Below are positions 339 through 29,013 of a stretch of 39,010 nucleotides of DNA, piece by piece; position 1 is the first letter of the stretch; every line of letters begins with the position of its first letter. The position numbers and the translations under genes were made by a program. The stretch is from Patescibacteria group bacterium (GTDB taxonomy: Bacteria; Patescibacteriota; Minisyncoccia; UBA10092). The stretch lies in contig JBDRMC010000007.1 in assembly GCA_043812515.1 (NCBI GenBank), positions 1 through 39,010 of the forward strand, read 5' to 3'. Below the pieces are notes generated by a model, which searched no databases, was not told where the DNA came from, and worked only from the letters and a program-made list of their open reading frames with translations.

Positions 339-340
<2 letters not shown>
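313..340. promoter_or_regulatory. 11-bp inverted repeat (313-323/330-340) enclosing an extended -10 TGGTATAAT (324-332)
   Basis: ACATCTAAATT..AATTTAGATGT is perfectly complementary. TATAAT lies at 327-332, 6 nt before the GTG at 339. Confidence 0.4.
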
Positions 341-3604
<3,264 letters not shown>

Positions 3605-4403: not shown

Positions 4404-4483
4404 AGTTGTGGGCATCCGCCTTCGCTAAAGCTTCGGCGGGATAGCTCATAAATTTAGCTAAAAATATTAATTTTTAGAAATTT

Positions 4484-6465: not shown

Positions 6466-7389
6466 TTATTGTATTGATAAAAAATCTTTAGCCAATTTTG
6501 CGGCCTGTTTTGAATTCGCGATCCAGCGGATTTTTTTGTTGCGGTTGAACCAAGTCATTTGGCGCTTGGCGTAATGCTCTATTTCTTTTTGCAATTTTTC
6601 AACCATTTCATCGTAAGATAATTTGTTTTGAAGATAATAGGCAACATAGCGGTATTCAAGGCCGAAATCTTCAAGCCGTTGCCAGCTCAAACCGGATTTT
6701 TTCAAATTTATAACTTCTTTAACCATGCCCATTTTTAGCCTTCTTAAAAGCCGTATTTTTATTGATTCTTTCAACTCTCTCATGTTGCGTTTAACGCCGA
6801 TAAACAGTGTTTCGTATTTCGGATTAGATTTAAGCAGGGGGACTTTCTTGCCCGATTTGATAATTATTTCCAGCGCTCTGATTAAACGGCGGCGGTTGTT
6901 TTTATCTATATTTTTTGACCGCCGCGGGTCCAATTTTTTTAATTGAGAAAATAATTCTTTGGTTGTTTTTTTCTCAAGAGCGGTTCTTAATTTCGCGTCA
7001 GGTTTTATTTCCGGAATGGAAATATTTTCCGTTATGGCTTGAATATAAAAACCCGTCCCTCCGCAAATGATGGGGATTTTTCCGCGTTTTATTATTTTTT
7101 TAATTGCTTTTTCTGCTAATCGCTTGTATTGGGCAACAGTGAATTGTTTTTTGGGATTGGCGACATCCAGAAGATGATGGGGGATTTTTGCCATTTCTTT
7201 TTTGGTGATTTTTCCGGTGCCGATGTCCATCCCTTCATAAACTTGCCGCGAGTCGGCGGAAATAATCTCGCCATGAAATTTTTGAGCGATTTTTACTGCC
7301 AGTGAACTTTTCCCCGATGCCGTTGGCCCAACGACTACAATTATTTTTGGGTTATATCTTACTTTCAATTTCTTTTTGGATTTTTTCAA
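6466..7389 (-). CDS. miaA: tRNA dimethylallyltransferase
   Basis: VVGPTASGKSSLAVKIA, ISADSRQVYEGMDIGTGK, IPHHLLD. Confidence 0.93.
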   Translation of the reverse strand: MKKSKKKLKVRYNPKIIVVVGPTASGKSSLAVKIAQKFHGEIISADSRQVYEGMDIGTGKITKKEMAKIPHHLLDVANPKKQFTVAQYKRLAEKAIKKIIKRGKIPIICGGTGFYIQAITENISIPEIKPDAKLRTALEKKTTKELFSQLKKLDPRRSKNIDKNNRRRLIRALEIIIKSGKKVPLLKSNPKYETLFIGVKRNMRELKESIKIRLLRRLKMGMVKEVINLKKSGLSWQRLEDFGLEYRYVAYYLQNKLSYDEMVEKLQKEIEHYAKRQMTWFNRNKKIRWIANSKQAAKLAKDFLSIQ

Positions 7390-8563
7390 TGAATTTTTCC
7401 AATTTCATCGCGCCAAGATCTCCCTTGCCTCTTTCGCGAATCGCGACAGAATCGTTTTTTTCTTCTTTGTCGCCAACGACCAAGATATAGGGGATCTTTT
7501 CAAGTTCGGCATTTCTTATTTTTTTACCAACGGTTTCATTTTCATTGTCCAGTTCCACCCGAACCCCTTCTTTTTTAAGTTTTTCTAGAATTTTTTCGGA
7601 GTATTTTAGATTTCGGTCGGTTATATTAAGTATTTTCACCTGAACGGGAGAAAGCCAAACAGGAAACGCGCCTTGATAATTTTCAACCAAAATCCCAATG
7701 AATCTTTCAAATGAGCCGAAGACGGCGCGATGAATCACCACCGGTTTTTCCTTTTCTCCCTTTTGGTTAGCGAAACTTAAATTAAACTTTTCGGCCATGT
7801 TGAAATCAACTTGAATAGTGCCGAGCTGCCATGAGCGATTTAGGGAGTCTTTGACGTGAATTTCTATTTTAGGGCCGTAAAAAGCTCCTTCTTTCGGTTG
7901 AAGTTCGTATTTTATTTTATTTTGTTTTAAGGCCTCAGCCAAAGCGTCTTCGGCTTTATCCCACAATTTTTTATCGCCCATGGCTTCATCCGGTCGAGTG
8001 GCAAGAAAGTAACTGGTTTTAAAATTGAAAATTCCATAAAAACCATTTATTAAAATAATCAGCCGGTTGATTTCTTCAACCAGTTCGTCAATTCTCACAT
8101 AAATATGGGCGTCATCCATAGTTATTTGTCTCACTCTGAAAAGGCCGTTCAACACGCCCGAAAGTTCTTTCCTGTGAAGCCGTCCGATTTCCGAAAATCT
8201 TAAGGGCAAATCCCGCCAGCTTCTGATTTTGGATGAATAAATAACGGTGCTTTCCGGGCAGTTCATCGGCTTTAAAACAAAGGTTTGTTTATCAACCATC
8301 AAGGAAAACATTAATTCTTTATAAAACTGGAAATGACCCGATTTTTCAAAAAGGTCTTTTCTAACCATAATCGGAGTTGATATTTCCTTATAATCCTCTT
8401 TATCAAGCGCCTCGCGGATTGCTTTTTCAAGTTCTCTGAAAATTATCATTCCTTTGGGATGCCAAAAAGGCGCGCCCGGGGCAATTTCATTAAATGAATA
8501 CAAATCAAGCTGGATGCCCAACTCCTGATGGCTTAATGTATTTTTATTTTCTGTTTTTTCCAT
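7352..8563 (-). CDS. thrS: Threonine--tRNA ligase, catalytic plus anticodon-binding domains only (no TGS or editing domains)
   Basis: FWHPKGMIIFRELE, LKPMNCPES, RFSEIGRLHRKELSG, VRQITMDDAHIY, HRAVFGSFERFIG. 403 aa, beginning where the catalytic core of bacterial ThrRS begins. Confidence 0.9.
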   Translation of the reverse strand: MEKTENKNTLSHQELGIQLDLYSFNEIAPGAPFWHPKGMIIFRELEKAIREALDKEDYKEISTPIMVRKDLFEKSGHFQFYKELMFSLMVDKQTFVLKPMNCPESTVIYSSKIRSWRDLPLRFSEIGRLHRKELSGVLNGLFRVRQITMDDAHIYVRIDELVEEINRLIILINGFYGIFNFKTSYFLATRPDEAMGDKKLWDKAEDALAEALKQNKIKYELQPKEGAFYGPKIEIHVKDSLNRSWQLGTIQVDFNMAEKFNLSFANQKGEKEKPVVIHRAVFGSFERFIGILVENYQGAFPVWLSPVQVKILNITDRNLKYSEKILEKLKKEGVRVELDNENETVGKKIRNAELEKIPYILVVGDKEEKNDSVAIRERGKGDLGAMKLEKFIEKIQKEIESKI

Positions 8564-8580
8564 TTTTAATATTTAATTTT

Positions 8581-11500
8581 TTAAGTTCTTTTTCCGTTTG
8601 TTGAAAATTCCCGCGCGCCATCGCAAATTATACCAAGCGTTCCGTTGCGCTGGGAAACCTTTCCTTGGACGATGATAATATTGTCTTCGCGCCAGATGTC
8701 GGGATTTTTTTCCAATATGTCCGGGAAAACAACTACTTCTATCTTATTAGCCCAATCTTCAAGTTTTGTAAAGAGCATCAAACGACCGTTTTTGGTGACA
8801 AACTTCTGTATGCCGGAAATCAGGCCGCCGATGGCAATTTTTTGTCCGACCAGCGCGGGTTTTATTTGATGGATGAGCAGCGATTTTTTCTCCATAATTT
8901 CACGATAATCCTGCATCGGATGTTCGGAGATATATAGTCCCAAAAATTCTTTTTCCCAAGCCAGTTTTTCTTTTTTTGCCGCCGGTTCGACATTTGCCAA
9001 TTTTAGCGGCGCAACCGTTGAATATGATTCAAAAAGTCCCGTTTGGGGCGCGCCGGCGTTTTTGTTGGAGTCCCTTAAATATCGCAGAATTTCTTCTATA
9101 TTGTTGTTGAGCATCCGCCTTTCATTGAAAGCGTCCAACGCTCCGCATTTTATGAGCGCTTCAAGGGATTTTTTGTTCAAATCCGATGGTGGGGTTCTTT
9201 CTAGAAAATTCTGCAAAGATAAAAATTTTTCGTTATTTTTCCTTTCTTCAATAATTCTTGAAATGGCATTGCCGCTCAAATTTTTTACCGCCGAAAAACC
9301 GAATCTGATTTTTTCGCCAGAGGCGAATCCGCCTTTGGCGGATATTCCATCCATTTCATTTTCATTTCTAACTAAGGTGAAATTTTCCAGACTTTCATTG
9401 ATGTCCGGAGGTAAAATATTTAGGCCCATTTTTTTTGTTTCGTTCATCAATATGGCGATGCGGTCCATATCAAAACTTTCCGCGTTTAGAAGAGAAGCCA
9501 TAAATTCCGCCGGGTATGTTGTTTTCAAATAGGCTGTTTGATAGGCGATAAGCGCGTAACAAGCGGCGTGCGATCTGTTAAAACCATAGCGCGCGAACGG
9601 CTCTATGAATTGCCATATTTTTTCCGCAGTTGCCGAGCCAATGCCATTGGCGATAAGACCGTTGACAAATTTTTCCGATTGCTCGTCAAGAAGCTTTTTT
9701 ATTTTTTTGCCGACGGCTTTTCTCAAAACATCGGCTTCCGAAAGAGTAAAACCGGCCATCTGGTTGGCGATTTTAATAACCTGTTCCTGATAAATGGCGA
9801 CGCCATAAGTGCTCTCCAAAATTGGCTTTAATTTAGGATGCAGATATTCAACTCTTTCCAGACCGTTTTTCCGCGCGATATAAGTCGGTATAAATTCCAT
9901 CGGGCCGGGGCGGAACGCCGCTACCATAACGATAATGTCTTCCAAGCCGGTCGGTTTCAATTCTTTCAGATAACGCCGCATTCCGGCGGATTCCAATTGA
10001 AATACTCCTGTGGTGTCGGCTCTTTTCAAAAGTTCGAAAGTTTTTTCATCGTCCAAGGGAATATTGTAAATATCTATTTTTTTTCCGTAATTTTTTTCTA
10101 TAAGTTCAAGCGTTTTTTCAATCGTTGTCAGGTTCCGCAGTCCCAAAATGTCCATTTTCAAAAGTCCCAAAGATTCAACTGAGCGCATATCATATTGGGT
10201 AACGAGCGCTTGCTCGCCATCCTTTTTGCCATTTGATTTTGTCGCCCATTGCAGGGGCATATATTCGGTAATCGGATTTTTGGTGATGACAACTCCGCAG
10301 GCGTGCGTTGAAGCGTGGCGGGCGACGCCTTCCAATTTTTTCGCGGTTTCAATCAACTGACGGGCTTGCGGGTCGGTGTCCACGGCCTGTTTCAATTCGG
10401 CGACGTTTTGAAGCGATTTTTCAAGCCAGCCGGTTTTCATTCCTTGGGTCGGGTTGAAGGGAATCATTTTGGCGATGGCGTCGCAAAAGCCGTAGCCGAA
10501 TCCCAGAACCCGGCCCGCGTCGCGTATAGCGGCGCGGGCCGCCATAGTCCCGAAAGTTATGATTTGAGCGACGTGTTCGCGGCCGTATTTTTTGGAAATA
10601 TATTCCAAAACTTCATTGCGCCTGTGGTCGGCGAAATCAAGGTCGATATCCGGTGGCGCTATGCGGTCGGGATTTAAAAATCTTTCAAAAAGAAGATTAT
10701 ATTTTATCGGGTCAAGATTGGTGATTCCCATTGAATATAAAATCAGCGAACCGGCGGCCGAACCACGGCCGGGACCGACGGCAATACCTTGATTTTTCGC
10801 CCAATTGACGATATCCCAAACTATTAAAATATATGAAGCAAAACCGGTTCTCTGGATAACGCCAAGTTCAAACTTAAAGCGTTCAAGAATTTCCTGTGGC
10901 GCGTTATCCAAGGATGAATAACCGAATTTTTTTTCAAAACCCAAAAGCGCCAATTTTTCCAAATAACTTTCCGCGGTTTCGCCCTCGGGCAATTCAAAAT
11001 GGGGGAATTGAAGATTGCCGAATTCAAATTCAAAATCAACGGCGTCGACAATTTTTTGAGGATTGCTGATTGCCTCCGGAATGTCGCTGAAAATTTTGGC
11101 CATTTCTTCTTCCGATTGGAAAGATAAATCCATTCCCTTGAGCGACAGGCGATTCGGGTCGGAAATTTTATTGCCGGTGCCGATTGCCAGCAAAGCGTCG
11201 TGATAATCTTCGTCTTCTTTTGAAATATAATGGACGTCGTTTGAGGCGACAAGAGGGATTTCAAGTTTTTTTGAAAGCTCTATTAAATCGGCGCGAAGAT
11301 TTTTATTTTCAAAATGGGGCTGGATTTCCATATAAAAATTATCTTTTCCGAAAATATCTCGGTACTCCCGCGCCGCTTCTTCGGCGGCTTCTAGTTTATT
11401 GGAAGATATAAGGTGGGGGATTTCGCCCTGCATGCATCCGGAAAGGCAAATCAATCCGTCGGCGTATTGCCGCAATAGATTTTTATCAACTCTCGGCTTG

Positions 11501-11847
11501 TAATAAAAACCTTCAAGATGAGCTTTTGTTACTAGCTGAACCAGATTTTTATATCCGGTTTTATTTTTTACCAAAAGCGTCAAATGAAATCGTTTATTGC
11601 CGGGCCCAGGATTTTTATCGGCCATGCCGCCGCTCGCCACATAAAACTCGCAGCCGATAATCGGTTTAAGCCCTGCCCGTTTGGCTTTTTGAAAAAATTC
11701 AACAGCGCCATAAATAGTCCCATGGTCGGTCAATGCCAGGGCTTCCATTCCAAGCTCCTTGGCGCGATTTACCAGGTCGTCAATTTTCGCCAGGCCGTCA
11801 AGCAAGCTGTAATGAGAGTGAACGTGAAGATGGGCGAACTTTGCCAT
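8581..11847 (-). CDS. dnaE: DNA polymerase III alpha subunit
   Basis: PHP domain FAHLHVHSHYSLLDG...LTDHG, GPGRGSAAGSLILYSMGIT, DIDLDF, FNRSHAACYA. 1088 aa. Confidence 0.97.
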   Translation of the reverse strand: MAKFAHLHVHSHYSLLDGLAKIDDLVNRAKELGMEALALTDHGTIYGAVEFFQKAKRAGLKPIIGCEFYVASGGMADKNPGPGNKRFHLTLLVKNKTGYKNLVQLVTKAHLEGFYYKPRVDKNLLRQYADGLICLSGCMQGEIPHLISSNKLEAAEEAAREYRDIFGKDNFYMEIQPHFENKNLRADLIELSKKLEIPLVASNDVHYISKEDEDYHDALLAIGTGNKISDPNRLSLKGMDLSFQSEEEMAKIFSDIPEAISNPQKIVDAVDFEFEFGNLQFPHFELPEGETAESYLEKLALLGFEKKFGYSSLDNAPQEILERFKFELGVIQRTGFASYILIVWDIVNWAKNQGIAVGPGRGSAAGSLILYSMGITNLDPIKYNLLFERFLNPDRIAPPDIDLDFADHRRNEVLEYISKKYGREHVAQIITFGTMAARAAIRDAGRVLGFGYGFCDAIAKMIPFNPTQGMKTGWLEKSLQNVAELKQAVDTDPQARQLIETAKKLEGVARHASTHACGVVITKNPITEYMPLQWATKSNGKKDGEQALVTQYDMRSVESLGLLKMDILGLRNLTTIEKTLELIEKNYGKKIDIYNIPLDDEKTFELLKRADTTGVFQLESAGMRRYLKELKPTGLEDIIVMVAAFRPGPMEFIPTYIARKNGLERVEYLHPKLKPILESTYGVAIYQEQVIKIANQMAGFTLSEADVLRKAVGKKIKKLLDEQSEKFVNGLIANGIGSATAEKIWQFIEPFARYGFNRSHAACYALIAYQTAYLKTTYPAEFMASLLNAESFDMDRIAILMNETKKMGLNILPPDINESLENFTLVRNENEMDGISAKGGFASGEKIRFGFSAVKNLSGNAISRIIEERKNNEKFLSLQNFLERTPPSDLNKKSLEALIKCGALDAFNERRMLNNNIEEILRYLRDSNKNAGAPQTGLFESYSTVAPLKLANVEPAAKKEKLAWEKEFLGLYISEHPMQDYREIMEKKSLLIHQIKPALVGQKIAIGGLISGIQKFVTKNGRLMLFTKLEDWANKIEVVVFPDILEKNPDIWREDNIIIVQGKVSQRNGTLGIICDGAREFSTNGKRT
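9313..9342 (-). repeat. 30-nt double-hairpin element (R element) in frame inside dnaE
   Basis: On the minus strand it reads TCCGCCAAAGGCGGATTCGCCTCTGGCGAA and encodes SAKGGFASGE. Homologous to 16412-16441, 20305-20334 and 20724-20753. Confidence 0.8.
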
Positions 11848-16186: not shown

Positions 16187-16627
16187 ATGAATAAAAAACT
16201 ATTGTTATTTATAATTGGGCTTATTATTTTAGCGATTGCCGGCGTGGTTATTTTTTATAATTCTGATTCACCGCCGATAAATAATGATTTTATTCAATCA
16301 ACCGCGCAAGCGCCGGCAGTAGAGGGCGATATTATTAATTCCGGTATCGCCGGCAGAGTGGTCTTGTTGGGTGGCGGACCGTATGAATATGAAGCATCTC
16401 TTGAAATTTTCTCCGCCAAAGGCGGATCCGCCTCTGGCGGAGAAAATGATACGCCCTTTATTTCAATCCGGACTCACAGTGATGGGACTTTCCAGATTCC
16501 TTTGCGTCCCGGCTCTTATATTTTGAAACCCACGGATCCCGATGGTTCCATCGCGCCGGCTCGCGACAACTATCCTTTTACGGTGGGCAATGGACAATGG
16601 CTTCAGGTTAGAGTTGAATATAGATAA
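16187..16627 (+). CDS. Signal-anchored hypothetical protein with a carboxypeptidase-regulatory-like beta-sandwich segment
   Basis: N-terminal TM helix. DGTFQIPLRPGSYILKP motif. Contains an in-frame R element. Confidence 0.7.
   Translation: MNKKLLLFIIGLIILAIAGVVIFYNSDSPPINNDFIQSTAQAPAVEGDIINSGIAGRVVLLGGGPYEYEASLEIFSAKGGSASGGENDTPFISIRTHSDGTFQIPLRPGSYILKPTDPDGSIAPARDNYPFTVGNGQWLQVRVEYR
16412..16441 (+). repeat. 30-nt double-hairpin element (R element), in frame
   Basis: TCCGCCAAAGGCGGATCCGCCTCTGGCGGA encodes SAKGGSASGG. Confidence 0.8.
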
Positions 16628-16628
16628 C

Positions 16629-18416
16629 ATGACTGACCAGGTTCAGGAGATAAAAGAAAAACTTAATATAGTCGACGTAATCTCCGGCTATATCCGCCTG
16701 CAAAAAGCCGGCATCAACCACAAAGGATTGTGTCCGTTTCATAATGAGAAGACGCCGTCATTTATGGTTTCGCCGTCGCGCCAAAACTGGCACTGCTTCG
16801 GCTGCGCCGAAGGCGGCGATATTTTTACGTTCATTCAAAAAATCGAAGGCGTCGAATTTCTGGAAGCGCTGAAAATTTTAGCGGAAAAAGCGGGAGTGGC
16901 TTTGAAATACAGCGACCCGAAATTGCGGACCGAAAAAGACAGAATTTATGAAATCTGCGAAAAAGCAACTCAATTTTTTTCCGCTTCATTAAATAATACG
17001 GGTGATATTTCAGATTATCTTCGCAAAAGGGGGGTGCGGGAGGAAACCGTAAACGAATGGCGGCTCGGTTACGCGCCGGATTCCTGGAATTCACTTTTGT
17101 CATTTTTATCAAAGCAGGGCTATCGCGAAGCGGAAATGGAAAAAGCCGGTTTGGTTATCCAGGCAGTAAAATATCACGACAGGTTCAGAAACCGTCTGAT
17201 GTTTCCGATTTTTGATTCCAACGGGCGCGTAGTGGCTTTTTCCGGCCGTATCATGGGCGACATTATTCCTTCCAAAACTGAAAGAGCCGACAGCGGCAAA
17301 TATGTCAATTCTCCGGAAACGATTTTATATAGCAAAAGCAAAATTCTTTACGGTTTGGATAAGGCAAAAACGGAAATAAGAAAAGCCGATAATGTAGTTT
17401 TGGTTGAGGGACAAATGGATGCGATTCTGCCGTGGCAAGACGGAATAAAAAATATTGTGGCGACATCGGGCACGGCTTTAACCGAAAATCATCTTTCAAT
17501 TTTGAAACGGCTCACCAACAATTTAATTTTAGCCTTTGATATGGACGATGCCGGTTTTCGCGCCACCAAACGCGGTATTGATTTGGCGAATGAATTGGGA
17601 TTCGGCGTTTCGGTTTTGGACATTTCTTCGGGCAAAGACCCCGCCGATTTCGTCAAAGAACGGCCGGGAGAATTTGCCAAGCTTGTTTTGGAGAGCCAGC
17701 CGATTATGGCTTATTATTTCAACCGGGTGTTCGGTAAATTTTCAGCCGACAAAATTGAAGGAAAAAAATTCATTGCCATAACCTTGCTTCCCGAAATAAA
17801 GCGTTTGCCCAGCGCCGTGGAAAGAAGCGGCTGGCTCAGAGAACTGTCACTGCGACTGGGGGTTTCCGAAGGCGACCTGAAAGAAGAAATGGAACGCCCC
17901 GATGCCGAGATTGACGTGCCGTTGAGAAATGCTGTCCCTTCGGGCCAAAAGGCCGATTCAACTTCGGAACGGGGACGACGGGGACGGCGAGAAATTTTGA
18001 GCGAACGCCTTTTGGCGTTATTATTAAAAAAGCCGGAATTTATCGCCGAAGCGGTTAAAGCGGCCGCTATTTTACCTAAAAACGATTTTGAAATCTTAAG
18101 CGCTTTAGTGGCGAATCAAAACGAATTTTCCGCGACAAGGGCGGCGCTTTCCGCGGATTTGCGCCCGCGGCTCGACTTTTTATATCTTGCCGGCGATTAC
18201 GAGTTGGAAAAAGCGGATGCCAATTTTAATATCGGCGATGAAGTGAAACTTTTAATTAAAGAAATCGAACGCGAACGCCACAAAGAAAGTTTACAAAAAA
18301 TCGGCCAGCAAATAAGAAAATGCGAGGCGGAAGAAGGCCTCGATATGAATCAATTGACGGAGGAATTCCAAAACGTTACCAATAAACTCTATAAAATAGA
18401 TGAAAACAAAAAATAA
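16629..18416 (+). CDS. dnaG: DNA primase. The ATG at 16629 is preferred over the track start at 16542.
   Basis: Zinc finger [25 protein letters not shown], Toprim VVLVEGQMD and FDMDDAG. Confidence 0.93.
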
Positions 18417-20151: not shown

Positions 20152-20299
20152 AAATTTAGTATGTATTCGTATATTCCGACATAGCGAAATGGGTGGAAGC
20201 GAGCAAGCGAGCTTTCACGGGCGTTCAATAATTTTATACTTTGCTGAACTCCGACATAGCTCAACGGTAGAGCGACTCCCTGTTAAGGAGTGGGTTCCT

Positions 20300-20340
20300 G
20301 GTTCTGCGCCAAAGGCGCATCCGCCTCTGGCGGAGAATCC
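20300..20340 (+). repeat. 41-bp direct repeat, left copy (GGTTC + R element + GAATCC)
   Basis: Identical to 20719-20759. Confidence 0.9.
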
Positions 20341-20377
20341 TAAAACATTAAATAATTTTAAATATAGATATCTGCGC

Positions 20378-20449
20378 TCCGACATAGCTCAACGGTAGAG
20401 CGACTCCCTGTTAAGGAGTGGGTTCCTGGTTCGAATCCAGGTGTCGGAG
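20378..20449 (+). tRNA. tRNA-Asn (anticodon GTT), intact; CCA not encoded
   Basis: TCCGACA acceptor, GCTC/GAGC D stem, ACTCC-CTGTTAA-GGAGT anticodon arm, CCTGG-TTCGAAT-CCAGG T arm, TGTCGGA plus discriminator G. Confidence 0.93.
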
Positions 20450-20473
20450 CGGAGATATCTATATCGCACGGGC

Positions 20474-20719
20474 ATGTATTATATTTATGTTATTAAAAGT
20501 TTGATTCACAATACTAGATATGTTGGCAGTACTGACAGAATAGAAAAACGAATTTCGGAACATAATTTAGGAAAGTGTCGTTACACGAGCGGTCGTCAGC
20601 CTTGGAAGTTAATATATCAAGAGGAATACAAAACACGAGGCGAGGCAATGAAAAGAGAAAAATTTTTAAAGTCTGGCATAGGTAGAAAATATTTGGATAA
20701 AGTATTAAAACAATTGTAG
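20474..20719 (+). CDS. Small GIY-YIG nuclease-family protein (81 aa). The ATG at 20474 is preferred over the track GTG at 20441, which lies inside the tRNA.
   Basis: YYIYVIKS...RYVGSTDRIEKRISEHN...WKLIYQEEY..R.EAMKREKFLK pattern of stand-alone GIY-YIG (URI-domain) proteins. Confidence 0.85.
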   Translation: MYYIYVIKSLIHNTRYVGSTDRIEKRISEHNLGKCRYTSGRQPWKLIYQEEYKTRGEAMKREKFLKSGIGRKYLDKVLKQL

Positions 20720-20759
20720 GTTCTGCGCCAAAGGCGCATCCGCCTCTGGCGGAGAATCC
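20719..20759 (+). repeat. 41-bp direct repeat, right copy
   Basis: Identical to 20300-20340. Its first base is the last base of the GIY-YIG stop codon. Confidence 0.9.
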
Positions 20760-20816
20760 AGGTGTCGGAGCAAATTTCTTTTAGTCAACCTTATATGGTT
20801 GTGATATGATTTTTAT

Positions 20817-27654: not shown

Positions 27655-28179
27655 ATGAAAAGTAAAGAAAACAATTTTGCATACATTGATGGCGCTAACC
27701 TACATAAGGGTGTAGCAGAATTAGGTTGGAAATTGGATTATAGGCGATTTCGCGTGTGGTTACGGGATAAATACAATGTTCAAAACGCATATCTTTTCAT
27801 TGGCCTTGTTCCAGACAATAAAGATCTATATACGAGCTTGCAGGAAATGGGTTATTTGCTGGTATATAAAGAAGTAACTTATGACGGCACTGGAAAAGTA
27901 AAAGGCAATTGTGACGCCGAACTAGTGCTTAAAGTTGCTGTAGATTATTATGAAAAGCAATTTAATAAAGCGGTTATTGTGGCAAGCGATGGCGATTACG
28001 CTTGTTTGGTTAAGTTCTTGAAAGAAAAGAGCGCGTTTCTATCTTTGGTTTCTCCCAGCAACAAATGTTCTTATCTTTTAAGAAAGTTAAACATTCCTAT
28101 TGTTTATTTAGATGCGAAGAAAAGTAAGTTTGATCGACAGGTTTATAACGAAAAAGCCCCCATTAAGGACAAGCCTTAA
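27655..28179 (+). CDS. NYN-domain (LabA/PIN-like) putative ribonuclease, paralog 1
   Basis: FAYIDGANL, ELGWKLDYRRFRVWL, LFIG, KGNCDAELV, ASDGDY: NYN/LabA-type motif set. Confidence 0.8.
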   Translation: MKSKENNFAYIDGANLHKGVAELGWKLDYRRFRVWLRDKYNVQNAYLFIGLVPDNKDLYTSLQEMGYLLVYKEVTYDGTGKVKGNCDAELVLKVAVDYYEKQFNKAVIVASDGDYACLVKFLKEKSAFLSLVSPSNKCSYLLRKLNIPIVYLDAKKSKFDRQVYNEKAPIKDKP

Positions 28180-28191
28180 CAGGGTCTTTTT
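28151..28191. terminator. Bidirectional hairpin overlapping the NYN-1 stop codon
   Basis: CCCATTAAGG-ACAAG-CCTTAACAGGG stem with an A-run upstream and a T-run downstream. Confidence 0.6.
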
Positions 28192-28206
28192 CATAATGAT
28201 ATTTAC

Positions 28207-28234
28207 AGTATAGCAAGCGTTTGCTAAAAGTCAA
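28207..28234 (-). promoter_or_regulatory. Conserved minus-strand promoter-like box: TTGACT, 16-nt spacer, TATACT, pointing into the NYN-1 3' end
   Basis: Both hexamers and their flanks are conserved with 28986-29013 while 7 nt of spacer differ. Confidence 0.5.
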
Positions 28235-28274
28235 CACTTATCCACAATGATAAATTTATTAAAATTCCTAAACC

Positions 28275-28352
28275 ATGCTCTCAATTTTAATAATAATCGG
28301 GGTGGTGGTTGTGGGGATTATTGTCGCCATCATCATCAATTCCGGCGAATAA
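28275..28352 (+). CDS. 25-aa hydrophobic peptide MLSILIIIGVVVVGIIVAIIINSGE
   Basis: ATG..TAA. Paralog at 29466-29546, differing by 6 synonymous and 4 conservative substitutions. A strong terminator follows. Confidence 0.55.
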   Translation: MLSILIIIGVVVVGIIVAIIINSGE

Positions 28353-28395
28353 TAACACTCCAACATTCTGCAGAATGTGAGAATGTTATTTTTTA
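28351..28395 (+). terminator. Rho-independent terminator
   Basis: AATAACA/TGTTATT outer stem, inner 16-nt perfect palindrome ACATTCTGCAGAATGT, then TTTT. Confidence 0.8.
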
Positions 28396-28434
28396 TTCTG
28401 TAGAGAATTTGTTAAAATAAAATAAAACAAAAAC

Positions 28435-28941
28435 ATAGATACAAAAGAAAACAATTACGCATTTATAGATAGCCAAAATTTAAACCTAAGCATTCGAGAA
28501 CTTGGGTGGAAACTTGATTGGCGCCGATTTCGAGTGTATCTAAAAGAAAAGTATAACGTTACAAAAGCCTTTTTATTTATTGGTTTTGTCGAGGGCAATA
28601 ATGATCTCTATAAATCACTTCAAGATGCCGGTTTTATTTGTATTTTTAAACCAACTTTAAAATATAAAGATGGAACTACAAAGGGAAATTGTGACGCGGA
28701 GTTTGTATTGCAAGCGATGATTGAGTACCCAAATTATAGAAAAGCTGTTATGGTAACCGGAGATGGAGATTTTTATTGTCTGGCAAAATATTTAATTGAA
28801 AATAAAAAACTGGAAGTCATTGTCGTGCCCAACAGGGACAAATTTTCCGCCTTATTGAAATTCAAAATCTGCCGTCCATTTCTTCGATTTATGAATGATT
28901 TGAAGGATAAATTGGAGTATAAAAAAGAAAAGACCCTATAA
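28435..28941 (+). CDS. NYN-domain paralog 2 without a canonical start codon at the homologous position (possible pseudogene or non-canonical start). The track's GTG at 28534 would remove the N-terminal IDxxNL motif.
   Basis: The frame is open from 28426 and reads ..IDTKENNYAFIDSQNLNLSIRELGWKLDWRRFRV, aligned to the paralog 1 N-terminus. There is no in-frame ATG/GTG/TTG before 28534. ATA at 28435 sits where paralog 1 has its ATG. Confidence 0.7.
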   Translation: MDTKENNYAFIDSQNLNLSIRELGWKLDWRRFRVYLKEKYNVTKAFLFIGFVEGNNDLYKSLQDAGFICIFKPTLKYKDGTTKGNCDAEFVLQAMIEYPNYRKAVMVTGDGDFYCLAKYLIENKKLEVIVVPNRDKFSALLKFKICRPFLRFMNDLKDKLEYKKEKTL

Positions 28942-28968
28942 GGACAAAACCTTATAGGGGGATCTTTT
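28921..28968. terminator. Bidirectional hairpin overlapping the NYN-2 stop codon
   Basis: CCCTATAAGG-ACAAAA-CCTTATAGGG perfect 10-bp stem with an A-rich run upstream and TTTT downstream. Confidence 0.65.
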
Positions 28969-28985
28969 CCGTTGGTGATATTTGC

Positions 28986-29013
28986 AGTATAGCAGATATT
29001 CGCTAAAAGTCAA
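28986..29013 (-). promoter_or_regulatory. Second copy of the minus-strand TTGACT, 16-nt spacer, TATACT box
   Basis: Same geometry and same distance from the hairpin as 28207-28234. Confidence 0.5.

Follow-up and report, generated by a model that had tools for sequence, protein, structure and literature searches.

A 30-nt double-hairpin element in protein genes and at a tRNA-Asn/GIY-YIG cassette of a Patescibacteria genome: a probable selfish mobile DNA

The 39-kb locus and the fold of the element

The window, meaning the whole stretch of DNA that was analysed, is 39,010 nt in length and comes from a Patescibacteria group bacterium. It contains four copies of a 30-nt sequence of fixed geometry, in which two abutting 6-bp GC stems carry 3-nt loops and the whole unit is almost its own reverse complement (Table 1). 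One copy lies in dnaE, another in the gene of a 146-aa protein (ORF146), and two border a cassette with an intact tRNA-Asn gene and the gene of a stand-alone GIY-YIG nuclease. All four copies had been predicted originally and all are present; they are the only matches of a degenerate pattern in the window, and the pattern gave 0 matches in 100 dinucleotide-preserving shuffles. The G+C content of the element is 0.53-0.64, compared with ~0.42 for the window. A search of the window with Rfam at the gathering threshold yields tRNA only, and the element therefore falls in no known RNA family.

Table 1. Coordinates of the double-hairpin copies, their host genes and the parts of the tRNA-Asn cassette in the window
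Feature	Position	Strand	Remarks
Sequence-diverged double hairpin	1115-1144	+	TCACCC-TGC-GGGTGA / CCACCC-GAA-GGGTGG; in PheRS gene 339-1652
dnaE with element	8581-11847	-	Element read as SAKGGFASGE, in variable loop of HhH domain
Double-hairpin element in dnaE	9313-9342	-	Hairpin 2 = TTCGCC/GGCGAA
ORF146, 146-aa conserved hypothetical, secreted or membrane-anchored	16187-16627		Element read as SAKGGSASGG
Canonical double-hairpin element	16412-16441	+	Inside ORF 16187-16627; TCCGCC-AAA-GGCGGA / TCCGCC-TCT-GGCGGA; covariance model 62 bits
5' remnant of split tRNA-Asn, positions 1-55	20250-20304	+	
Double-hairpin element, left cassette border	20305-20334	+	Hairpin 1 = TGCGCC/GGCGCA
11-bp inverted repeat	20363-20373 and 20453-20463		Brackets intact tRNA-Asn
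Intact tRNA-Asn(GTT)	20378-20450	+	ARAGORN; Rfam RF00005, 70.9 bits
GIY-YIG nuclease gene, stand-alone	20474-20719	+	81 aa; same orientation as tRNA-Asn
Double-hairpin element, right cassette border	20724-20753	+	Identical to 20305 copy; 3' tRNA-Asn remnant next
3' remnant of split tRNA-Asn, positions 56-73	20754-20771	+	

The predicted folding energies of the window copies are -18 to -22 kcal/mol (z -3.7 to -4.3). Each copy had been proposed to fold into two adjacent hairpins with stems maintained by covariation. The single-sequence minimum free energy (MFE) structure does not agree for two copies with identical inner stems, where it is a nested hairpin. Over 34 distinct copies, the two-hairpin model has 98% paired cells and 31 double-change cells, as opposed to 7.1 in shuffles (0/500), and the nested model has 89.7% paired cells, which is lower than in shuffles. 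On this covariation the two-hairpin fold was chosen and the nested single-hairpin fold rejected. The compensatory stem changes fall within each hairpin, and compensatory variants of the inner stems surface once the search pattern is dropped. Such changes could come from quasi-palindrome correction by template switching rather than from selection.

A pattern-free structural scan, with ~0.4 such matches expected over 800 kb, revealed a fifth double hairpin at 1115-1144. Its host gene encodes a PheRS of mitochondrial type; the hairpin is read as 10 residues and falls at the place where the protein has an insertion of 11 aa when compared with human mtPheRS (5mgu). It probably belongs to the family as a distant member. 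A hairpin is also present at 4414-4442, where a half-element had been suggested, but the covariance model of the family gives it only 8 bits (E 0.36), and its membership is therefore unproven. Genuine single-hairpin forms do occur in other genomes.

Copies in protein genes and across genomes

As had been noted from the window, dnaE and ORF146 read the element in the same frame. The tryptic peptide across the element in ORF146 is GGSASGGENDTPFISIR. All 121 copies among the matches listed are exactly 30 nt long, and 68 of these 121 (~56%) are solos that reside in open reading frames of at least 150 aa, in an 8-kb locus free of GIY genes. Among the matches listed, frame 0 is used by 61 of 72 copies (85%) where 46% would be expected (p = 1e-11), and the sense orientation is found in 83% as against an expected 53% (p = 1.5e-7). 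The bias to frame 0 argues that copies are translated and pass through a filter of selection. The main frame-0 reading, SAKGGSASGG, is a decapeptide of Ser, Ala, Gly and Lys, and stop codons are absent from all six frames; accordingly, the element appears to be translated and tolerated, not spliced out. The positions where it is tolerated are variable loops or protein termini. Most likely, the copy at 16412-16441 has no cellular function and is a passenger that the host tolerates, coding for a flexible loop.

At the DNA level, insertion is seamless at approximately TTY|RAA, with neither target duplication nor deletion. The ends of the element are TCCGCC...GGCGGA, and no GTAG or CGTC tag is present. 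Among the matches listed, position -2 is T in 92 of 119 copies and position +2 is A in 103 of 121, so that the target is two-fold symmetric. Target-site duplications were sought in the flanks and at the dnaE empty site, and none were found; a search for complementary flanks that might close a third helix showed enrichment of the ±2 T:A pair only. In dnaE the orientation of the copy follows that of the gene, which by GC skew is on the lagging strand (a single case).

Orthologues without the insert, a check proposed with the original prediction, are found for both protein genes. A dnaE orthologue of 89% identity (L114) has the empty site GGAATA|AAAATC, a clean 30-bp difference. An orthologue of ORF146 with 92% identity is free of the element, and as this empty allele differs by an additional 9 nt, the site is less clean than that of dnaE. 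In relatives, the 16412 site is empty, double, loop-flipped or occupied by a 15-nt single hairpin. The element is thus an insertion, present or absent between close relatives, and not ancestral sequence.

The exact 22-base core of the element was found by genome scan at >113 loci, with an estimated ~0.07 matches expected by chance. Repetition elsewhere had been set beforehand as a test of the prediction, and it extends over many phyla. Taxa that bear the core include Patescibacteria, Omnitrophota, Ignavibacteriota, Planctomycetota, one Nanoarchaeota metagenome-assembled genome (MAG) and others; some of the MAG taxonomic labels are possibly wrong. The scan pattern held the inner stems and loops fixed and was biased to one variant, and abundance and taxonomic range are therefore lower bounds (at least these values). 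The element is also present on contigs of 0.4-1.6 Mb assigned to Ignavibacteriales, Doudnabacteria and Patescibacteria. A scan of viral contigs with the core pattern gave 0 matches, blastn found no match among INPHARED phages or PLSDB plasmids, and phage records hold distant GIY homologues only; nothing thus points to a vector of phage or plasmid origin.

The decapeptide resembles a generic flexible linker and the data all come from metagenome assemblies. This raises the question of whether the repeat is an ancestral or convergent Gly/Ser/Ala linker coding sequence, or an artefact of assembly or contamination. The same DNA recurs, however, synonymous positions included, in non-coding DNA, in tRNA remnants, in all frames and on both strands, and stem substitutions are paired. 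Many projects and assemblers, independent of one another, recovered the element, on contigs of up to 1.6 Mb. Together with the empty sites of close orthologues, these findings refute the linker or artefact reading, the probability of which is negligible.

The tRNA-Asn cassette and its GIY-YIG gene

The region 20250-20771 is one tRNA-Asn cassette, in which a tRNA gene has been split and a replacement tRNA supplied. It is ordered as 5' remnant, element, intact tRNA-Asn, GIY-YIG gene, element and 3' remnant. The two remnants, when joined, equal the intact tRNA-Asn base for base. The element at 20305 is inserted after position 55 of the remnant, within the T-loop (GGTTC|GAATCC), and the two borders form an exact 41-bp repeat, GGTTC-element-GAATCC (5 + 30 + 6), with identity ending after 5 and 6 nt. 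The original prediction had placed these two copies inside a tRNA; in fact they flank tRNA-Asn and sit in the split remnants of a second copy. The linked nuclease gene and tRNA, which that prediction did not include, form the context that tells most about the element. A search of the 39-kb window for another transposase or integrase found none, and no RAYT (HUH Y1) gene was found there.

The 81-aa protein matches Pfam PF01541 (E 1.1e-15) and, in the structure database, PDB 1ywl and 1zg2 (E ~5e-6) as well as SLX1 6seh (E 0.014). In an alignment of GIY homologues, Y5, Y16, G18, H30 and E62 are invariant and R26 is at least 90% conserved. The protein has the GIY-YIG fold and the catalytic Tyr, Tyr, Arg, His and Glu by which the stand-alone Slx1/UPF0213 GIY-YIG family is defined (PMC1564403), and it is without the C-terminal Asn and without an accessory domain. 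The product of 20474-20719 is a candidate for the enzyme of the system.

The association was followed in 80 metagenome loci that were picked by GIY similarity alone. The scan profile was a 4-sequence GIY alignment, as an alignment of 12 sequences was too diverse. A same-strand tRNA lies within 120 nt of the GIY gene in 69 of the 80 loci, and double hairpins are present in 44 (67 found, as opposed to 0.85 in shuffles). In these 44 loci, the hairpins are 8-30 nt 5' of the GIY ATG or 6-15 nt 3' of the stop codon, a fixed position next to the GIY open reading frame and on its tRNA-distal side. Some GIY genes adjoin single or degenerate hairpins, and some without a double hairpin lie inside other palindromes (L045, L057, L021). 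Conversely, 13 of the 121 element copies among the matches listed have a GIY gene within 200 nt, and five more GIY genes lie >1 kb from any element in ~750 kb of element loci.

The split-tRNA layout is also found in L009, L027, L033, L040, L060, L079 and most of L115-L194. An element abuts a tRNA fragment at 68 junctions, most of them seamless; the T-loop accounts for 37, the anticodon loop for 15 and the D region for 14. Intact tRNAs contain none of the 68 tRNA-associated copies, which without exception occupy truncated remnants with a clean copy alongside. In cassettes of both tRNA-Asn and tRNA-Gln, the limits of the duplication are again 4-7 nt.

The location at tRNA-gene loops and a compact, very stable fold that prolongs the host helix would suit an RNA-level mini-intron that an endonuclease and a ligase would excise from tRNAs and mRNAs, with the genes left unaltered, and the host lineages are known for unusual RNA insertions. 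A spliced element, however, would need neither the bias in frame and orientation nor the stop-free design, and the splicing hypothesis was rejected on the frame statistics. The lack of copies in intact tRNAs (0/68) also speaks against it. Remnant plus element is predicted to fold into one uninterrupted, extended helix that bears two hairpins and no bulge-helix-bulge (BHB); the element differs from archaeal-type tRNA introns both in this respect and in never occurring in a functional tRNA gene. In addition, analogous mitochondrial elements stay in transcripts (PMC2800124). A mini-intron is therefore very improbable.

A second proposal is that the double hairpin is a module of the cassette only, whether it stabilises RNA ends, acts as a terminator, signals processing or is a folded recombination site like attC, and that solos are rare and immobile by-products. 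It would account for the fixed, tRNA-distal hairpin position by the GIY open reading frame and for a structure that is kept while the sequence varies, as in integron attC sites; likewise, the two flanking copies are identical within a genome and orthologous copies differ between genomes. But solos are in the majority, 68 of 121 copies among the matches listed being in long open reading frames, and essential genes such as dnaE are hit, where a cassette could never reside. No T-run follows the hairpins, since the flanks are RAA, and no integrase is nearby. A cassette-only role appears improbable.

Movement of the element and its relation to known systems

The reading preferred here, at a probability of about 0.68, is that the element is selfish 30-nt mobile DNA, carried as a translated passenger in protein genes and joined to a tRNA and a GIY-YIG gene in cassettes, and that the GIY-YIG protein drives both cassette homing and the spread of solos. 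For the transposition chemistry of the 30-nt element we infer the following steps. The GIY-YIG protein would be a structure-guided nuclease whose substrate is the hairpin fold, extruded or single-stranded, or the cloverleaf loops of tRNA genes. To judge by the exact 41-bp duplication, and by similar limits in unrelated tRNA cassettes, nicks would fall symmetrically, one on each strand, ~5 nt beyond the ends of the element. Cassette homing would then resemble that of the mitochondrial mORF endonuclease cassettes that carry a replacement gene part, and in trans the protein may provide breaks where solo elements are copied into new sites; in the window, the solo targets would be dnaE, ORF146 and PheRS. 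To our knowledge, GIY-YIG nucleases hydrolyse DNA and perform no strand transfer, and so a ligation or repair-copy step must be assumed. Some points stand against a GIY-driven process. The intact tRNA of the cassette should stay a target if the nuclease cuts tRNA loops, ~56% of the copies are solos with no GIY gene in the 8-kb locus, and there are GIY genes that lack a double hairpin.

Most element copies are distant from GIY genes, and some tRNA remnants have several elements at different loops (L133, L135), as if by independent insertions. Perhaps another enzyme encoded elsewhere, such as a hairpin-recognising HUH single-strand transposase of the IS200/IS605 or RAYT type, is the mover, and the GIY/tRNA link reflects no more than the fact that only in broken tRNA copies do hits to its favoured target, tRNA-gene loops, do no harm. 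Seamless, duplication-free insertion and hairpin ends are as in peel-and-paste transposition, and both are also features of miniature elements derived from IS200/IS605. Against this, the junction copy is constantly 4-11 nt from the cassette boundary rather than in random loops, and in 44 of 80 independent loci the hairpins keep their set distances from the GIY start or stop. The 39-kb window has no HUH transposase. IS200/IS605 elements insert 3' of asymmetric tetranucleotide or pentanucleotide targets, with a strand specificity linked to replication; the present target and element appear to differ in being two-fold symmetric. A HUH mover is accordingly regarded as unlikely, and GIY-driven movement is retained as the preferred reading.

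Palindromic elements that are mobile in other genomes offer several parallels. Double-hairpin elements (DHEs) are 26-79 bp in size. Those of Allomyces mitochondrial DNA (Paquin, Laforest and Lang 2000), as summarised in PMC2800124, stay in transcripts when inserted in genes and avoid structurally important regions. Compared by description, DHEs and the present element both consist of two adjacent stem-loops in the same size range, form G+C-rich islands in an A+T-rich genome, and are present or absent between close relatives with no flanking duplication. DHEs, however, are organellar and fungal, whereas the element is in bacterial and archaeal chromosomal contigs of many phyla. The element also differs in its fixed 30 nt and fixed 6+3+6 geometry, in its residence mostly in protein-coding genes, and in its statistical link to a nuclease gene and tRNA-gene loops.

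Rickettsia palindromic elements (RPEs) are palindromic selfish DNA of ~100-150 bp, confined to Rickettsia, which insert in-frame in protein genes and are translated; they are also found in RNA genes. The original prediction likened the present element to RPEs as a far shorter, in-frame insertion element, and the repeats and empty sites bear this out. Both are palindromic selfish DNA that leaves open reading frames open, is translated and also enters RNA genes, and we know of no transposase for RPEs, nor is one known for the element. The differences are in length (exactly 30 nt, with a 30-bp difference at the dnaE empty site), in host (Patescibacteria, with spread across phyla) and in the presence of a candidate enzyme partner and a defined target (TTY|RAA, tRNA loops).

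Yeast mitochondrial GC clusters and the GC-rich palindromes of Neurospora mitochondria (PMC4478555; references cited in PMC2800124) are likewise mobile GC-rich palindromes in AT-rich DNA. Some clusters are in open reading frames (var1) and are retained in the RNA, those palindromes of Neurospora border tRNA genes, and intron-encoded endonucleases have been proposed as helpers. GC clusters differ in their putative AG or TAG target-site duplications and variable lengths, neither of which the element has. In the mORF cassettes of Allomyces atp6 and of Glomus atp6, atp9, cox2 and nad3, a LAGLIDADG or GIY-YIG open reading frame is inserted together with a replacement gene part, and horizontal gene transfer was inferred (PMC3630166). 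The present cassette is similar in that an endonuclease gene, here GIY-YIG between the tRNA-Asn halves, is inserted in a gene and a replacement copy is brought while the native part is left as a remnant, here an intact tRNA-Asn with 5' and 3' remnants. It differs in its target, a tRNA gene and not a protein gene, in a nuclease that consists of an 80-aa catalytic domain and lacks a DNA-binding domain, in that both target halves can be displaced, and in the double hairpin at its junctions. SegB of phage T4, a GIY-YIG homing endonuclease that is free-standing and encoded in a tRNA gene cluster, cleaves tRNA gene DNA and promotes the inheritance of its own region (PMC2330249). GIY-YIG genes are among tRNA genes in both cases, but SegB is phage-borne, has a DNA-binding domain and belongs to the HEase/UvrC lineage, whereas the protein described here is chromosomal, of the minimal Slx1-like lineage (PMC1564403), and accompanied by hairpin repeats.

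Among bacterial elements, small dispersed repeats of Nostoc have reportedly been described by Elhai et al. 2008. These and the REP/REPIN-RAYT repeats resemble the element as hairpin repeats of ~20-40 nt that behave as non-autonomous mobile DNA. REPs are extragenic, have a GTAG or CGTC tag and are paired with a RAYT gene (PMC3733652); the element differs in having its copies mostly inside open reading frames and in lacking the tag, and no RAYT gene was found in the 39-kb window. Literature searches with literal DNA and peptide strings, including a second palindrome (GTCATTGCGAG...), returned unrelated primer matches only, and a keyword search for an earlier description in CPR or Omnitrophota found none. 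No earlier description of a bacterial double-hairpin/GIY system was thus found. Tentatively, and with the odds against it, the element and the Slx1-like protein may represent an unrecognised class of mobile DNA, with a minimal nuclease that recognises a DNA fold and not a sequence and would cut symmetrically ~5 nt outside it, as well as at the loops of cloverleaf-folded tRNA genes. The outcome would be homing of cassettes that replace a tRNA, and seamless spread of solos, then the smallest transposable unit known, into coding genes across bacterial phyla and DPANN archaea. As part of this same tentative reading, the double-hairpin/GIY system might correspond, in free-living organisms, to the DHE and GC-cluster elements of mitochondria.

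If the preferred reading is true, the element would be among the smallest mobile DNAs known, with 30 nt and half forms of 15 nt. How RPEs, mitochondrial DHEs, GC clusters and REP-like repeats move is an old question that the element system could address, as its candidate enzyme and defined target would make it a workable system for the movement of tiny palindromic elements. Slx1/UPF0213 stand-alone GIY-YIG proteins, a very widespread orphan family, would gain a concrete role. A selfish element could enter essential single-copy tRNA genes of streamlined genomes by supplying a replacement copy, and sequence-level exchange would be documented among Patescibacteria, Omnitrophota, Ignavibacteriota and DPANN that share habitats. 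At a practical level, the element would explain recurrent insertions of the SAKGGSASGG type in protein alignments, as well as spurious tRNA fragments, pseudo-tRNAs and contig breaks near tRNA genes in MAGs.

The element and its copies in the window

The element is a 30-nt double hairpin with two abutting 6-bp GC stems and 3-nt loops. Reading the window confirms the positions and sequences of the four copies of the original prediction, and a degenerate pattern matches only these four, compared with none in 100 dinucleotide-preserving shuffles. At 0.53–0.64 GC versus ∼0.42 for the window, the copies are indeed GC-rich islands. Folding energies are −18 to −22 kcal/mol (z ∼ −4). A covariance model built later scores the four at 59–62 bits and gives no other convincing hit in the window. 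For the hairpin between nusG and rplK that had been proposed as a half-element, the score is only 8 bits (E 0.36), so it is not supported as such. The nusG–rplK spacer, with its ATCCGCC...GGCGGGAT hairpin, is 80 nt long versus 3 nt in the closest relative (L114, its dnaE-orthologue locus), and thus is a lineage-specific insert. A pattern-free search for two abutting perfect hairpins with 6 bp stems and 3 nt loops reveals a fifth, sequence-diverged copy, TCACCC-TGC-GGGTGA/CCACCC-GAA-GGGTGG (also written TCACCCTGCGGGTGACCACCCGAAGGGTGG). It coincides with an 11-aa insertion in a PheRS gene relative to human mtPheRS. Elsewhere, two NYN-domain (RNase-like) ORFs are found in and beside the lowest-GC kilobase (GC 0.33, 28001–29000), and this region may be a small foreign island.

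Features of the window discussed in the text
Feature	Position	Strand	Remarks
PheRS gene	339–1652		mitochondrial-type, monomeric
Element, fifth copy	1115–1144		in PheRS gene
nusG–rplK spacer	4404–4483		
Proposed half-element	4406–4443		
Class II aaRS gene	7352–8563		downstream of dnaE
dnaE	8581–11847		
Element	9313–9342	minus	in dnaE
ORF146	16187–16627		146 aa; N-terminal hydrophobic segment
Element	16412–16441		in ORF146
ORF146/dnaG overlap	16542–16627		86 nt
tRNA-Asn 5′ remnant	20250–20304		tRNA positions 1–55
Element	20305–20334		
GAATCC	20335–20340		
Spacer	20341–20377		37 nt
Inverted repeat, arms	20363–20373, 20453–20463		11 bp
Intact tRNA-Asn	20378–20450		ARAGORN, Rfam
GIY-YIG ORF	20474–20719	plus	81 aa; PF01541, E 1e-15
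GGTTC	20719–20723		
Element	20724–20753		
tRNA-Asn 3′ remnant	20754–20771		tRNA positions 56–73
NYN-domain ORFs	27655–28941		two ORFs

That the element is repeated elsewhere is evident from a single scan of GTDB representative genomes with the pattern CGCCAAAGGCGNNNNCGCCTCTGGCG. The core pattern is present at no fewer than 113 loci in many phyla. Hosts among the matches listed include Patescibacteria (Saccharibacteria, Uhrbacteria, Nomurabacteria, Doudnabacteria and others), Omnitrophota, Ignavibacteriota/Bacteroidota, Planctomycetota/Brocadiia, Elusimicrobia, Margulisiibacteriota, Dehalococcoidia and Kiritimatiellia, as well as MAGs labelled Gammaproteobacteria and one Nanoarchaeota MAG. Some element-bearing contigs are 0.4–1.6 Mb long.

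The outer two pairs of each stem vary jointly (TCCGCC/GGCGGA, CCCGCC/GGCGGG, TGCGCC/GGCGCA, CTCGCC/GGCGAG, TTCGCC/GGCGAA). The proposal of paired substitutions holds: 98% of cells pair under the two-hairpin model, and there are 31 double changes versus 7.1 in shuffles (0/500). Without the pattern constraint, compensatory variants of the inner stem are found (TCCGGC/GCCGGA, TCAGCC/GGCTGA, TGAGCC/GGCTCA, CCAGCC/GGCTGG and TCGGCC/GCCGA-type pairs). Alternative pairing of arm 1 with arm 4 and arm 2 with arm 3 scores worse than shuffles. Purines dominate loop 1 (ARA) and pyrimidines loop 2 (TYY); thus the 30-mer is almost its own reverse complement. Judged by these sequence comparisons, the structure is maintained and the element occurs across phyla.

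Insertion into protein genes and fate of the insert

The dnaE gene product has Pfam domains PHP, DNA_pol3_alpha, finger, HHH_6 and OB. The element within it reads SAKGGFASGE and is part of a 17-residue stretch absent from Thermus Pol III alpha. The closest DnaE, 89% identical, is from Patescibacteria MAG GCA_043824815.1 and reads ...HENEGIKIRF where the window has ...NENEMDGI[SAKGGFASGE]KIRF. The DNA of the relative shows an empty site, GGAATA followed directly by AAAATCAGATT. In the window the two hexamers are separated by exactly 30 additional bases, and nothing is duplicated or deleted between the filled and empty alleles. As the segment is missing from so close a relative, it is an insertion and not ancestral sequence. 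The C-terminus of a Candidatus Azambacteria DnaE (P0002), ...QSGSASGGKI, resembles another copy or half copy at the 3′ end of dnaE. The neighboring class II aaRS gene encodes 403 aa (core and anticodon-binding domain); its syntenic counterpart in the relative (L114, 1621–3378) is longer, at 585 aa, and includes a tRNA_SAD domain.

ORF146 is a genuine gene; Azambacteria-like Patescibacteria encode ∼70 homologues. The element is absent from an orthologue with a 92% identical protein, and the site is less clean than that in dnaE because the empty allele differs by 9 nt more. The element site holds a double hairpin in several orthologues with AAA/TCT loops and in several others with AGC/TTT loops (the flipped form, which reads SASGGSAFGG); one orthologue has a single 15-nt hairpin there. 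As for the listed dnaG ORF that overlaps ORF146, its true start is probably an internal Met near 16629. The alleles compared indicate that the element is a seamless insertion.

Among the matches listed, 92 of 119 copies have T at −2 and 103 of 121 have A at +2; T, C or G predominate at −1, and A or G at +1. These preferences define a target of roughly TTY/RAA, itself symmetric. No target duplication was found at the insertion flanks of these copies.

The element is free of stop codons in each of its six frames. Among the matches listed, 68/121 copies lie in open frames ≥150 aa long, 28/121 are within 200 nt of a tRNA or GIY-YIG gene and 25/121 fall within short ORFs, between genes or at contig ends. 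The long-open-frame copies listed (n = 72) comprise 52 that are SAKGGSASGG-like, nine in reverse frame 0 (SARGGSAFGG) and 11 in the other four frames. Relative to a null model that incorporates the flank preferences, the copies listed favor frame 0 (85% observed, 46% predicted, p = 1e-11) and the sense orientation (83% versus 53%, p = 1.5e-7). This bias points to purifying selection on the translated insert, and is not what would be seen were the element excised from RNA. Accordingly, the reading frames indicate that the element is translated and filtered by selection. Many of the copies listed closely follow a start codon or lie close to a stop codon. Three Ignavibacteria loci (L013, L037, L044) share the placement of the element, which shortly precedes a C-terminal ...SSGIY motif of the kind typical for T9SS sorting domains; they represent either orthologues or several hits on a single protein family.

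Split tRNA genes and the GIY-YIG nuclease

Two copies had been placed within a tRNA, but those starting at 20305 and 20724 are outside the tRNA-Asn called by ARAGORN and Rfam. The two flanking remnants, when joined, are identical to this intact tRNA-Asn, and GGTTC-element-GAATCC forms an exact 41-bp direct repeat whose identity ends at 5 and 6 nt either side of the element. Thus, a tRNA-Asn gene is split in the T-loop and, from this arrangement, encloses a replacement tRNA-Asn and a nuclease gene, with one element per junction. The intact tRNA sits between the arms of an 11-bp inverted repeat (TATAGATATCT/AGATATCTATA), whose pairing would lengthen the acceptor stem; a comparable 13-bp bracket (AATAAATTTTTAT/ATAAAAATTTATT) occurs in L119, a locus picked by GIY similarity.

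The GIY protein is a stand-alone Slx1/UPF0213-type domain (PDB 1ywl and 1zg2, E ∼5e-6; SLX1, E 0.014). Residues Y5, Y16, G18, H30 and E62 are invariant and R26 nearly so. Databases annotate it just as 'GIY-YIG nuclease family protein'. No transposase or integrase was found in the window. In loci chosen by the element, tblastn with the GIY protein of the window reveals homologues directly beside it in L009, L027, L033, L040, L049, L060, L079, L097, L098 and L103, in every case in a tRNA context. A second set of 80 metagenome loci was picked by GIY protein similarity alone. In 69/80, a same-strand tRNA gene is within 120 nt of the GIY gene, and 44/80 hold 67 double hairpins (at most one mismatch) versus 0.85 expected. 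These sit 8–30 nt upstream of the ATG or 6–15 nt after the stop, and several more loci have a degenerate or single GC hairpin in this position.

The general layout is a tRNA 5′ remnant, hairpin(s), GIY gene and intact tRNA in either order, hairpin(s) and a tRNA 3′ remnant, at times in tandem arrays. The 68 junctions between element and tRNA fragment are in the T-loop (37, canonical 56/57), the anticodon loop (15), the D region (14) or elsewhere (two), and none is in an intact tRNA. They are usually seamless, e.g. 55/56, 36/37 and 17/18. In tRNA-Asn and tRNA-Gln cassettes with two hairpin copies, the duplicated unit reaches 4–7 nt past the element on each side. Orthologous tRNA-Asn cassettes (window, L115–L121) have differing, compensated stems, while paired copies within a genome are identical or 1 nt apart, which indicates concerted turnover. 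By its recurrent context, the element is genetically linked to a cassette of GIY-YIG gene and replacement tRNA that splits tRNA genes at loop positions.

In L115 (∼1085–1100), L119 (∼1793–1807), L148, L164/L170 and L184, single 15-nt GC hairpins (e.g. TCCGCC-TAA-GGCGGA and GTCGCC-TGA-GGCGAC) take the place of the anticodon arm in tRNA remnants or interrupt it. Small deletions at some of these sites show that not every event is a clean insertion. GIY genes that lack the element are found within other perfect inverted repeats. In L045 (5960–6240), L057 (3350–3620) and L021 (5640–5900) they are exactly between 14–30-bp repeats, as if inserted into a palindrome center. This points to hairpin or palindrome centers as the habitat of GIY genes. 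Another widespread palindromic repeat, GTCATTGCGAGGAGC...GACGAAGCAATC, holds the element at its center or flanks a GIY gene (L010 ∼2140–2230, L059 ∼980–1070, L021, L085), which suggests nesting of palindromic elements. Most contigs encoding close GIY homologues are under 2 kb, which fits assembly breaks at a multicopy tRNA/GIY/hairpin repeat.

Related systems and a proposed mechanism

Functionally among the closest systems are the Allomyces mitochondrial double-hairpin elements (DHEs), yeast GC clusters and Neurospora GC palindromes flanking tRNA genes (PMC2800124, PMC4478555), Rickettsia RPEs, mORF cassettes (PMC3630166) and T4 SegB (PMC2330249). The element resembles DHEs in form but not in host. 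It differs from RPEs in length and host, from REP/RAYT in their extragenic location and GTAG tag, and from BHB introns in their defining features. No published account of a bacterial or archaeal element of this kind, or of a GIY-tRNA-hairpin cassette, was found in the literature searched. GIY-YIG genes have been noted among those exchanged by groundwater Patescibacteria (PMC12455944).

Comparative genomics, on which the mechanistic steps rest, leads to the following proposal. By analogy with Slx1, a structure-specific endonuclease (PMC1564403), the nuclease may be structure-guided. From the 5 + 30 + 6 duplication, nicks would be symmetric and lie just outside the element. Solo hairpin units would move in trans, by copying or pasting, into symmetric breaks, and the cassette would home like mitochondrial mORF elements, which bring along a substitute for part of the interrupted gene (PMC3630166).
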